Part shown: piece after piece, positions 9,604-12,452 of the stretch
Layout: every line of letters begins with the position of its first letter
Numbering within the stretch: the first letter of the stretch is position 1
Source of the DNA: an uncultured Candidatus Saccharibacteria bacterium
Lineage (GTDB): Bacteria; Patescibacteriota; Minisyncoccia; Phycocordibacterales; Zambryskibacteraceae
Direction of reading: 5' to 3'
Length of the DNA stretch: 26,106 nucleotides
Assembly (NCBI GenBank): GCA_964494215.1
Contig: CAZBQU010000002.1
Coordinates: forward strand, 1-26,106
Position numbers and translations under genes: made by a program
The notes under the pieces: generated by a model
Seen by the model: the letters and a program-made list of their open reading frames with translations, nothing else
Told to the model about the DNA's origin: nothing
The model's database searches: none

Positions 9604-12096
9604 TTAACGTTGAGCCGCGGTGAGTCGCATGTGCTCTTCCGTCTTCAAGAGACCGCACTTCTTATACTTCTTACCACTACCACATGGGCACGGTTCGTTA
9701 CGTCCGGCGTCTGAATCCGGAACAGAAGCGCCCGAAAGGCTGACAGCAATCGGCTCAGCGCCAGACACGGGGATAGCTTCCATTGCCTGAGTATCCACAT
9801 TTAAGACGAACTCCCCCACCTGCCGCGCGGTCGAATGCTCCATGTCGCGGAAGAAGCGCAAACCCTCTCTCTTGTATTCCACGAGCGGGTCACGTTGCCC
9901 GTATGCACGCAAGTTCACGCTGTTGCGGAGATACTCCATCATTTCCAAGTGATCTACCCAGAACAGGTCGACGGTGTGGAGGATAAGGCGACGCAAGGTT
10001 TCCTTCGTTGCCTCATTGGTAAAGTCGAGGGTCGCGAACTTTTTGTCAAAAGCTTCATGCACGGAAGGCTCTAAGCTTTCGCGTGTTTCCATAAGATAGG
10101 CACGGATCTCTGCTTCGTTCCCGAGCAAAATGCCGCGTCGACGACCATAGATGATATTTCTCTGGAAGTTAAGAACGTCGTCGAACTCAAGGACGTGCTT
10201 TCTCGCATCAAAGTTGAAGCCTTCAATCTTTTCCTGCGCCTTCTCGAGCGAGTTGGTGATGAGTTTATTCTCAATCGGCTCATCTTCGGCGATATTGAAG
10301 CGGCCCATCATCTTCTTGATCATATCGACAGCGAAGATGCGCATAAGAGAGTCCTCCAAGGAAACAAAGAACTGCGTAGCACCTGGGTCTCCTTGGCGTC
10401 CGGAACGACCACGGAGCTGGTTGTCGATACGGCGGGCGTCGTGTCGCTCCGTACCTAAGACAAAGAGGCCGCCCAAGGCCTTCACTTCTTCATAGGTCTC
10501 AGTGGCCATGGGGCTACCGCCGAGTTTAATGTCGACACCGCGACCTGCCATGTTGGTAGCGATCGTCACTGCCCCCTTGCGACCGGCCTGAGCGATAATC
10601 TCTCCTTCACGTTCATGATTTTTGGCATTCAAAATTTCGTGCGGAATGTTGGCCGCCTTCAAGTACTCACTCAAGAGTTCGTTGTGCTCAATAGAAACAG
10701 TGCCGATAAGGACGGGCTGGCCCTTAAGAGAGAGCTCCTTCACCTTCTTCGCAACGGCCTTCATCTTGCCGGCAAGTGTTTGGAAGATGAGATCACCACG
10801 ATCTTCGCGCGCCACCGGGCGATGCGTCGGAATAACGTATGTTTCAAGACCATACACTTTATAAAATTCTTCCTTCGAGGTAACAGCGGTACCCGTCATG
10901 CCAGCGAGCTTGCCGTACATACGGAAAAAGTTCTGGAACGTGATCGACGCGTAGGTGCGGGATTCTTCTTTGATACGCGCACCTTCTTTAGCTTCGATCG
11001 CCTGGTGTAAGCCCTCAGACCAACGGCGCCCTGGTTGCATGCGGCCAGTGAACGCATCCACGATAACAACCTCGTTGTCGCGCACGACGTATTCTTTATC
11101 TTTGCGGTACAGAGCCTTAGCCTTCACCGCCGTTTCCAGGTGATGCACGTACTTAACGCCTCCTTCTGTATAAATATTCTCAATACCAAGAAGCTTTTCC
11201 GCTTTGGTAATCCCCTCGTCTGTCATAGAAATCGCACGCAGCTTCTCATCGATAGTAAAGTCGGCACCTTCGGTAAGAGATGTCGCAATCCGAGCGAAGG
11301 TCGTATACAACTCACCGGCACTCCCTACGTTACCAGAAATAATAAGCGGCGTTCGAGCTTCGTCGATAAGAATAGAGTCAACTTCGTCGACAATAGCGTA
11401 ATGCCACCCACGCTGCACCAACTGCTTCGGGTCATGGACCATGTTGTCGCGCAGATAATCGAAACCGAATTCATTGTTCGTACCATACGTAATGTCGGCA
11501 CGATATGCTTCCTGCTTCGTCGCGGCACGGAGGAACTCATACACCACTTTGAAAGAACCTTTGTCATCTCGCTCCTTATCTTTCTCCTCATCAACGTGAC
11601 TTTCGTCGTATACAAATGAAGCTTGTGAATTCAACACACCCGTAGTGACACCGAGAGCAGCATACACCTGCCCCATATCGACGGCATCACGGCGAGAAAG
11701 ATAATCATTTACAGTAACGACGTGCACGCCCTTACCGTCGAGTGCCATGAGATACGCCGCGAGTGTAGCGACAAGTGTTTTACCTTCACCGGTTTTCATT
11801 TCTGCAATACCACCATGGAAAAGTGCGAGACCGCCCAAAATCTGAACATCGAAATGACGTTCATGTCTCGTTCGCTTCGCCGCTTCGCGCACAGCCGCAA
11901 ACGCTTCGGGCAAAATTTCTTCAAGAGAAGCGCCCTCGGCAAGACGCTTTTTAAATTCTAATGTTTTTGCTTTAAGCTCGTCGGCAGAAAACTTTTCGTA
12001 CTCAGGTTCGAGTGCGTTAACTGTGGCGACAGTTGAGCGCCACAATTCAATCTTCTTATCTTCCGTGGAGCGGAATAATGAGGTGAAAAAAGCCAT
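9604..12096 (-). CDS. secA: Preprotein translocase ATPase SecA
   Basis: MKTGEGKT, IVDEVDSILIDEARTPLIISG, ATNMAGRGVDI, QLRGRSGRQGDPG and a C-terminal SEC-C-like CPCGSGKKYKKC. Start moved to ATG 12096. Confidence 0.98.
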   Translation of the reverse strand: MAFFTSLFRSTEDKKIELWRSTVATVNALEPEYEKFSADELKAKTLEFKKRLAEGASLEEILPEAFAAVREAAKRTRHERHFDVQILGGLALFHGGIAEMKTGEGKTLVATLAAYLMALDGKGVHVVTVNDYLSRRDAVDMGQVYAALGVTTGVLNSQASFVYDESHVDEEKDKERDDKGSFKVVYEFLRAATKQEAYRADITYGTNNEFGFDYLRDNMVHDPKQLVQRGWHYAIVDEVDSILIDEARTPLIISGNVGSAGELYTTFARIATSLTEGADFTIDEKLRAISMTDEGITKAEKLLGIENIYTEGGVKYVHHLETAVKAKALYRKDKEYVVRDNEVVIVDAFTGRMQPGRRWSEGLHQAIEAKEGARIKEESRTYASITFQNFFRMYGKLAGMTGTAVTSKEEFYKVYGLETYVIPTHRPVAREDRGDLIFQTLAGKMKAVAKKVKELSLKGQPVLIGTVSIEHNELLSEYLKAANIPHEILNAKNHEREGEIIAQAGRKGAVTIATNMAGRGVDIKLGGSPMATETYEEVKALGGLFVLGTERHDARRIDNQLRGRSGRQGDPGATQFFVSLEDSLMRIFAVDMIKKMMGRFNIAEDEPIENKLITNSLEKAQEKIEGFNFDARKHVLEFDDVLNFQRNIIYGRRRGILLGNEAEIRAYLMETRESLEPSVHEAFDKKFATLDFTNEATKETLRRLILHTVDLFWVDHLEMMEYLRNSVNLRAYGQRDPLVEYKREGLRFFRDMEHSTARQVGEFVLNVDTQAMEAIPVSGAEPIAVSLSGASVPDSDAGRNEPCPCGSGKKYKKCGLLKTEEHMRLTAAQR

Positions 12097-12106
12097 ATAA
12101 GGACTC

Positions 12107-12115
12107 ATTTTACCA
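12107..12115 (-). promoter_or_regulatory. Extended -10 (TGGTAAAAT), 10 nt upstream of the secA ATG
   Basis: TGn-TAAAAT; it overlaps the longer start used by the ORF track. Confidence 0.55.
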
Positions 12116-12128
12116 TATTTTACGCCAA

Positions 12129-12168
12129 GAAAAAGCGCTTCCCCTTATACAGGGAGAAGCGCTTTTTC
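12129..12168 (-). terminator. Intrinsic (likely bidirectional) terminator downstream of the Lys-rich micro-ORF
   Basis: Perfect 13-bp arms gaaaaagcgcttc (12129-12141) / gaagcgctttttc (12156-12168), an inner ccct/aggg stem, and T-tracts on both strands. Confidence 0.8.
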
Positions 12169-12184
12169 GTGGGCCCTAAGAGAA

Positions 12185-12274
12185 CTAACGGCTCTTCTTC
12201 TTTTTCGAAACGGCTTTCTTCTTCTTAGGAGCTGCCTTCTTCTTCTTAGGAGCGACCTTCTTTTTCTTTGCCAT
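12185..12274 (-). CDS. 29-aa lysine-rich micro-protein MAKKKKVAPKKKKAAPKKKKAVSKKKKSR (histone H1 tail-like)
   Basis: ATG at 12274 and TAG at 12185-12187, with a 21-nt repeat unit and a terminator 16 nt downstream. 13 of 16 Lys codons are AAG, so long poly-A runs are avoided. Confidence 0.75.
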   Translation of the reverse strand: MAKKKKVAPKKKKAAPKKKKAVSKKKKSR

Positions 12275-12284
12275 TGATGGAATG

Positions 12285-12349
12285 TGTTGCTCTTCGATTA
12301 CTCGGAGAACAGATTACTAGTAACCCTGAGCCGCAGAAGATATTCTGCG
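12285..12349 (-). ncRNA. Candidate structured 5' leader / cis-regulatory RNA (three hairpins)
   Basis: Hairpins at 12332-12349 (CGCAGAA/UUCUGCG), 12310-12328 and 12285-12311 (GUAA tetraloop), found by eye; no known family recognised. Confidence 0.4.
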
Positions 12350-12413
12350 CTTGATTCAATTATCGTATGTATGCGCCGAAACACAATAGGCAAACAGAGA
12401 AAAAAGCCGAAAG

Positions 12414-12422
12414 TGTGGATAA
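12414..12422 (-). promoter_or_regulatory. Perfect DnaA box TTATCCACA
   Basis: The plus strand reads TGTGGATAA in intergenic DNA next to an AT-rich inverted repeat (12424-12442). Confidence 0.55.
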
Positions 12423-12452
12423 CCGAAAAAAATATTTTTTCGAATTTTTTTA

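Follow-up and report, generated by a model that had tools for sequence, protein, structure and literature searches.

Stem-loops at the 5′ end of an mRNA protect it from 5′-end-dependent RNase, as has been established in Bacillus, and the rpsA leader combines efficient S1-dependent initiation with a role as the feedback site for its own nucleic-acid-binding product, S1. To our knowledge, almost nothing is known about the control of gene expression in the ultra-small CPR bacteria. A conserved structured leader in a lineage that lacks the anti-Shine-Dalgarno (anti-SD) sequence, and in which genes are mostly leaderless, is a rare handle on the initiation of leadered mRNAs and on RNA decay.

The window analyzed here (the whole stretch of DNA, 26,106 nucleotides) is contig 2 of a 58-contig, 513-kb genome with a completeness of 93%. 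The similarity of its SecA points to the Parcubacteria, the closest named records being Candidatus Adlerbacteria and Candidatus Giovannonibacteria. The coordinates of the leader, promoter, micro-ORF and secA all refer to the minus strand, on which a gene for a Wzy_C/TPR membrane protein (14492-12453) is followed by a 178-nt spacer, a micro-ORF (12274-12185), a terminator and secA. It was found that a DnaA-box-like TTATCCACA sequence, a -35/-10 promoter, a leader, the poly-lysine micro-ORF and the terminator make up a conserved transcription unit, which gene callers miss. The unit is single-copy, as no second copy of the leader or of the shared motifs was found elsewhere in the genome to which the window belongs, and an RNA search of the sequence found no tRNA or tmRNA. 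The features, in the direction of transcription, are as follows:

12414-12422, minus strand: TTATCCACA box, identical to the DnaA-box consensus; a perfect 9-mer in 25 of 32 homologous loci.
12381-12386, minus strand: -35 hexamer TTGTGT, with CTATTGTAT as the consensus of the family and conservation across about 30 loci.
12359-12364, minus strand: -10 hexamer GATAAT, nearly invariant as GATAAT(TAA) among homologs.
12351-12352, minus strand: predicted transcription start (A), 7-8 nt past the -10 by promoter geometry; a conserved AAG precedes hairpin H1.
12332-12349, minus strand: 5′-terminal hairpin H1, CGCAGAA-UAUC-UUCUGCG, 7 bp with the loop UAUC, in the MFE and centroid structures (probability 0.96 in the window).
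12312-12325, minus strand: A/U-rich element GGUUA-CUAG-UAAUC (CGUUA-AUAA-UAAUU in the family), with conserved flanks; a possible weak mini-hairpin, H2.
12288-12311, minus strand: hairpin H3, UGUUCU.CGA-GUAA-UCG.AGAGCA, with a GUAA loop and the second AGUAAUC (12302-12296) in its apex.
12275-12287, minus strand: unstructured A/C-rich spacer without a Shine-Dalgarno (SD) sequence (family ..CAACACA-AUG), 13 nt here and 7 nt in most relatives.
12185-12274, minus strand: micro-ORF of 29 codons, 16 of them for lysine, starting MAKKKK, from the ORF list.
12127-12167, minus strand: intrinsic terminator of the micro-gene, flanked by an A-tract and, on the opposite side, a U-tract, from the sequence and a terminator scan; an equivalent hairpin is present in all homologs.
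12096-12112, minus strand: secA promoter TGgTAAAAT (-10 at 12112-12107) and likely secA start ATG 12096, from the sequence and SecA alignments.

The leader comprises about 78 nt of 5′ untranslated sequence from the predicted start to the AUG. A DNA search of relatives located the micro-gene and the constant architecture of its flanks, after which a covariance model was built from eight leaders. This model found exactly one sense-strand copy of the leader per genome in 26 of the 37 genus genomes and, with stricter filters, matched 9 of the 151 genomes that had been sampled from the order. On this comparison, the leader is a conserved and genuine structured 5′ UTR that matches no Rfam family: with Rfam 15, neither the window nor 14 homologous loci gave a match at the gathering score, and sub-threshold matches fell only on the micro-ORF, the terminator or the distal upstream spacer, with none on H1-H3.

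A reading of the sequence alone, which preceded this analysis, had proposed a structured leader in front of the micro-gene, and for H1 and H3 the structure proved to be more than chance. H1 is present as described (12349-12332) and begins 3 nt after the predicted 5′ end, if transcription starts 7 nt past the conserved -10; such a start would put it inside the limit of about 4 nt that applies to stabilizing 5′ stem-loops. It has been kept through compensatory changes in 24 homologs (11 of 12 model pairs, with 93% of cells paired), and its stem is 12-20 bp in relatives, much longer than the 7 bp of the window. H3 is likewise present with its GUAA loop and covaries (compensatory changes in five of six model pairs, 95.5% of cells paired in the 24 homologs), but it ends 13 nt before the AUG at 12274 and not 10 nt before it, as the sequence-only reading had it. 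The H3 stems of relatives are GC-rich and differ in sequence (CCCGAC/GUCGGG, CCGCC/GGCGG, GUUCG/CGAAC and others).

Both hairpins appear in the RNAfold MFE and centroid structures, and the window leader has a z of -2.24 relative to dinucleotide shuffles. When H1 and H3 were pooled over the 24-sequence alignment, which was fitted to the covariance model and therefore biases pair counts, 94% of cells were standard pairs and 16 of 18 pairs had double-sided changes. None of 500 shuffles was as good on any measure, and sliding the 3′ partners by 1-3 columns gave 37-61% pairing compared to 94% in register. Independently of the model alignment, single-sequence folding gives both hairpins in most homologs, and all 24 leaders fold better than dinucleotide shuffles (z -2.4 to -6.9, median -4.3), the window leader being the least stably folded of the family. 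The H1/H3 alignment contains about 27 G-U cells, and this abundance of G-U pairs indicates that the structure is specific to the sense strand. Neither in the window nor in homologs is H1 or H3 followed by a U-tract. No terminator was found inside the leader, and nothing spoke for the separate, co-transcribed small RNA that the sequence-only reading had offered as an option.

Two observations concern variant leaders. In a same-genus genome (G015; L046/L013), the leader is 48 nt long and has H1 only, without the A/U-rich element and H3; therefore, both of these parts are dispensable in at least one lineage. In leaders of distant homologs from other families and orders (L006, L007, L015, L080, L081, L085, L088 and L091), which are otherwise unalignable, the motif GGUCG(A/C) recurs, either where the first hairpin starts on its 5′ side or within a long hairpin, in the loop or on the 3′ side.

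The promoter sits about 85 nt upstream of the micro-gene, as had been proposed, and its elements are conserved in about 30 loci, for which the upstream consensus is aAAGTTATCCACA, N16-17, CTATTGTAT, N17, GATAATTAA, N3, AAG. The hexamer first taken for the -10, TACGAT (12367-12362), is present, but the conserved -10 is GATAAT (12364-12359), which overlaps it by 3 nt. The spacer between the -35 and the -10 is 16 nt in the window and 16-17 nt, with variable sequence, across about 30 loci. A generic sigma-70 scan called no promoter because the -35 is weak, and cross-locus conservation was needed to see it. The geometry of these elements would place the transcription start at about 12352.

The distance from the TTATCCACA box to the -35 is 27 nt in the window and 16-17 nt in most relatives; that is, the spacing is fixed at 16-17 nt, with exactly one helical turn more in the window and in its nearest relative, L044. 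Such a fixed spacing, or one turn more, is what would be expected of a protein site held on one face of the DNA. The TTATCCACA 9-mer occurs in 11 copies in the 513-kb genome (e.g., C34:5823(-), C20:5763(-), C20:2805(-) and C12:1943(+)), several of them 30-50 nt upstream of TAnAAT promoters. The genes that follow these copies include one for a type IV pilin-like protein (N-terminus GFTLIELL), two for large secreted/membrane proteins and one for a membrane protein, and the box may be a mark of strongly expressed genes for surface and small proteins, not of genes for replication. Adjoining the box on its upstream side is an A/T-only palindrome, CGAAAAAATATTTTTTCG (12423-12452, minus strand), and relatives have TTTTTGAAAAA-type palindromes at the corresponding position; it may serve the preceding Wzy-like gene as a weak terminator, or it may be an UP-like element. 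A literature search on TTATCCACA in CPR, an ORF upstream of secA and a lysine-rich ribosomal protein of Patescibacteria found nothing relevant.

The A/U-rich element between H1 and H3 is the sole part of the leader that is conserved as sequence. It spans about 12 nt, (A)CGUUA-N4/5-UAAU(U), in which the GUUA and UAAY flanks are fixed and the loop is variable. Considered as the hairpin H2, it has compensatory changes in none of its four pairs, and its predicted pairing is below 0.06 in most homologs, reaching 0.38-0.67 only in the window (0.38), L044, L052 and L042, in all of which the closing pair is G-C.

This element is central to a conformational switch that the sequence-only reading had suggested, in which GGUUACU (12325-12319) toggles between the adjacent AGUAAUC (12318-12312, forming H2) and the second copy (12302-12296) in the apex of H3, opening and closing H3. 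All three segments are present, and the mutually exclusive pairings are real for the window sequence: placing GGUUACU on the second AGUAAUC gives -20.1 compared to -20.8 kcal/mol, a cost of 0.7 kcal/mol, and both states are populated in the ensemble (the adjacent mini-hairpin with a probability of about 0.4, the pairing with the second copy with one of 0.13). L044 retains both copies of AGUAAUC. However, among the 24 homologs the exact second copy occurs only in the window and L044 and is missing from 22 (L026 and L034 have AGCAAUC in the H3 loop in its place), and in 18 of the 24 the 5′ half of the element pairs into the H3 region with a probability of no more than 0.02. Therefore, the switch is not conserved. 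Furthermore, neither state reaches the AUG or makes a terminator, and there is no conserved junction or ligand pocket, the sequence conservation consisting of the one linear element. Judged by its distribution among homologs, the two-state arrangement is a lineage-specific accident of sequence, and a working switch is highly improbable.

As forms of such a switch, a riboswitch or thermosensor had been suggested. The AUG is 13 nt past H3 (7 nt in relatives) and is predicted to be open rather than sequestered, and the H3 stems of relatives are not only GC-rich but stable. Because there is no Rfam match, the start is open, there is no U-tract, and the second AGUAAUC is lineage-specific, a conserved riboswitch, thermometer or attenuator is not supported.

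Two other interpretations of the element were considered and rejected. An internal -10 or sigma-dependent pause is plausible for TAATAAT in relatives, but the TAGTAAT of the window lacks key positions yet keeps the RNA pairing, and this was dismissed as the main interpretation. A triple stop closing an upstream ORF would have no conserved in-frame start.

The conservation of the element at the level of sequence points to a specific binding partner. A regulatory operator can accordingly be envisaged, in which GUUA-N4/5-UAAY, held between rigid hairpins, would be a putative site for a trans factor (the poly-lysine peptide, as in the autoregulation that the sequence-only reading had suggested, another RNA-binding protein or a small RNA) that tunes translation or decay. 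Such an operator would explain why, unlike in the rest of the leader, sequence rather than pairing is kept, with a loop that varies between two fixed flanks. In the window and L044, the element is strengthened to a 5-bp stem closed by G-C or G-U, the order-level relative L007 carries AUUAC-UAAA-GUAAU at the same position, and the extremely basic product of the micro-ORF is likely to bind nucleic acid. However, H2 is without compensatory change and predicted to be unpaired in most homologs, a short, disordered, lysine-rich peptide would be a poor sequence-specific recognizer, no Hfq was found, and the loops of H1 and H3, being variable among homologs, offer no specific site. On balance, we regard the operator as a tentative and rather unlikely possibility, although it is the foremost alternative to the interpretation favored below. 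If the element is a binding site, the leader would be among the first cis-regulatory RNAs defined for Parcubacteria; if it is not, the leader would be an ordinary expression-boosting UTR, and the main value of this work would be the clean annotation of the unit.

How the micro-ORF is translated has to be considered against the initiation signals of the lineage. The impression that most genes are leaderless and that a long leader is exceptional agrees with the genome to which the window belongs, in which the frequency of TAnAAT is highest 6-9 nt ahead of ORF starts (about 9%, compared to 0.3% in controls) and SD-like motifs upstream of ORF starts are not enriched. The 16S rRNA gene is not in this assembly, and the 16S tail was read from L062 (same genus) and L061 (same family). 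In both, the 3′ end after helix 45 is GAGUAAUUCAAUU and not GAUCACCUCCUUA, and CCUCC, the anti-SD, is absent. These tails fit an anti-SD-less subgroup of Parcubacteria that has been described (PMC9297842). As the 16S rRNA of the lineage lacks the anti-SD, initiation must be SD-independent.

At the start of the micro-ORF, positions -8 to +12 are predicted to be 70% unpaired in the window and 64-86% in the family (26 homologs). In 24 of the 26 homologs, shuffling the leader makes the start less open, although the difference is modest (0.76 with the real vs. 0.68 with shuffled leaders) and the homologs are kin rather than independent samples.

The AGUAAUC repeat has the same sense as the 16S 3′ tail of relatives, GAGUAAUUC, to which GGUUACU is complementary; the repeat and the tail have a core of only about 5 nt in common, which most homologs do not retain. 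Candidates for a replacement of the SD signal were rejected: an SD of another sequence that would pair with the changed 16S tail (the k-mers enriched ahead of starts were mostly stop-codon-containing and -10-like words, and no clear signal emerged), pairing of the leader GUUAC with the tail GUAAU (most homologs have GUUAA), and a general rule that leadered genes have a hairpin at the SD-helix position (no upstream peak in the mean pairing profile of 371 non-leaderless ORF starts). For this leader itself, H3 ends at the position of the SD/anti-SD helix and so might replace that helix in an anti-SD-less lineage. A fuller version of the idea is that H3 (7 nt before the AUG in most homologs, 13 nt here) would dock in the 30S platform as an SD-helix substitute that fixes the start, and that GUUA..UAAY might be an operator for feedback by the peptide or by a factor that binds the 16S tail; we give this speculative proposal little credence.

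With respect to the host machinery, RNase J is encoded in the genome (TIGR00649, 469 bits relative to a cut-off of 400), as is a protein containing four S1 domains. In the 93%-complete genome, neither RNase E/G nor Hfq was found, and Hfq was dropped as the protein that would recognize the (AAU)n repeat. The retention of RNase J by CPR bacteria has been described (PMC12641178).

The interpretation that we favor, with moderate confidence, is that the leader is a constitutively folded 5′ UTR, a fixed stability-and-translation module of the mRNA of the poly-lysine micro-protein. The conserved promoter (TTATCCACA box, -35 and -10) would start transcription 3 nt before H1, and H1, by analogy with known leaders, would most likely act as a 5′-terminal stabilizer that hinders the 5′-end-dependent exonuclease RNase J. 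The single-stranded GUUAAUAAUAAU-type A/U-rich element would probably be a landing or standby site for the S1-bearing 30S subunit. H3 and H1 would sequester pyrimidine-rich leader segments that could otherwise pair with the purine-rich ORF, and with these segments locked in hairpins, the A/C-rich, SD-less start region would stay open. This interpretation draws together the conservation of the promoter, the covariation of both hairpins, a start region that is predicted to be open, the lack of SD signals and the RNase J and S1-domain proteins that the genome encodes. Against it, a leader that serves stability and translation has no obvious need for about 12 nt conserved as sequence, the window leader is the least stable of its family, L013/L046 do without the element and H3, and we infer rather than observe the start site and the expression level.

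A further question is whether the micro-ORF is what the transcript is for, since a non-coding or dual-function small RNA of roughly 225 nt could act in trans via the exposed A/U-rich element, with the ORF being secondary. The unit is short and independent, with its own promoter and terminator, and exposes a conserved single-stranded motif between hairpins; in addition, purine-rich repeats are open in every frame, so that the open frame alone is weak coding evidence. However, homologs of the micro-ORF in more than 30 genomes, 18-55 codons long, conserve the ATG and the MAKKKK start, and many of them end in KKKRA followed by the stop. The interchange of Lys and Arg uses CGA besides AGA, which argues for selection on the protein, and no complement to the motif of at least 8 nt was found in the 16S rRNA loci of relatives. 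We therefore think a small RNA very improbable.

In the window (12176-12196, minus strand) and in homologous loci, the last codons of the micro-ORF are often complementary to the bases past the stop, e.g., CGAG-CAUAGU-CUCG, which puts the stop in a hairpin loop. Of 31 loci, 7 show the strict GAG..UAG..CUC pattern, and many more are predicted to form some other small hairpin. This constraint on the RNA may be part of the reason why the C-terminal "RA" is frequent.

The position of the micro-gene raises the possibility that the leader, the lysine-rich ORF and the terminator act in cis on secA, as an attenuator or a SecM-like monitor that sets read-through. The micro-gene is directly 5′ of secA in all 36 loci examined, other families included (SecA identity there 59-64%), and in about 11 of 28 loci of other orders within the class, and the U-tract of the terminator abuts the secA promoter. 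However, the Wzy-like gene upstream of the unit is syntenic too, and the linkage may be mere conserved gene order. The terminator is strong, and its stem begins 17 nt past the micro-ORF stop, beyond the footprint of a terminating ribosome. No antiterminator alternative was seen, and the peptide has no signal or membrane segment with which to monitor secretion.

Furthermore, secA has a conserved promoter of its own. The longest secA ORF starts at 12108, whereas the SecA proteins of relatives align from residue 5, and the real start is probably ATG 12096, about 10 nt past the extended -10 TGgTAAAAT; relatives have the same TGnTAAAAT, about 10 nt and then ATGGCC. A start at ATG 12096 would make secA leaderless or nearly so, with its -35 region overlapping the U-tract of the terminator. 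With this promoter and likely start, secA is a separate transcription unit, and this promoter, together with the distance of the terminator stem from the micro-ORF stop, makes an attenuator or SecM-like role a most unlikely one.

The locus can be compared with several known systems. As with SecM-secA and other upstream ORFs that monitor secretion (MifM, VemP), a small ORF lies immediately 5′ of secA in an arrangement conserved across many genomes; in contrast to those systems, the micro-gene is closed by a terminator of its own and secA has a separate promoter, the peptide is without a signal sequence or arrest motif, and no structure links the ORF to the secA start. Lambda N/boxB, HIV Tat/TAR and ribosomal-protein leaders resemble this locus in that a small, very basic peptide is encoded beside, or acts on, a structured RNA, and the GUAA loop of H3 in the window is of the GNRA type, as in pairs of arginine-rich peptides and hairpins. 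The loops of H1 and H3 vary among homologs, however, the peptide is rich in lysine rather than arginine, and there is no antitermination target.

The E. coli rpsA leader, too, is SD-poor and built of successive hairpins split by A/U-rich single strands, and S1-dependent initiation is proposed here by analogy with it. The two differ in sequence and in loop motifs, the product here is a 29-residue lysine peptide and not S1, and SD-independence, a speciality in rpsA, is the rule in this anti-SD-less lineage. The E. coli ompA 5′ UTR and the Bacillus aprE/ermC stabilizers share with this leader the succession of a hairpin near the 5′ end (here the predicted one), an A/U-rich single strand, a second hairpin and the start region. 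There is no sequence or Rfam relationship with these leaders and no SD in this one, and a stabilizing effect here would be by analogy. RNase E and Hfq, which act on ompA, were not found in this genome, whereas RNase J, the relevant enzyme for the Bacillus stabilizers, is encoded in it. The leader is best filed in the known class of stabilizing and translation-enabling leaders.
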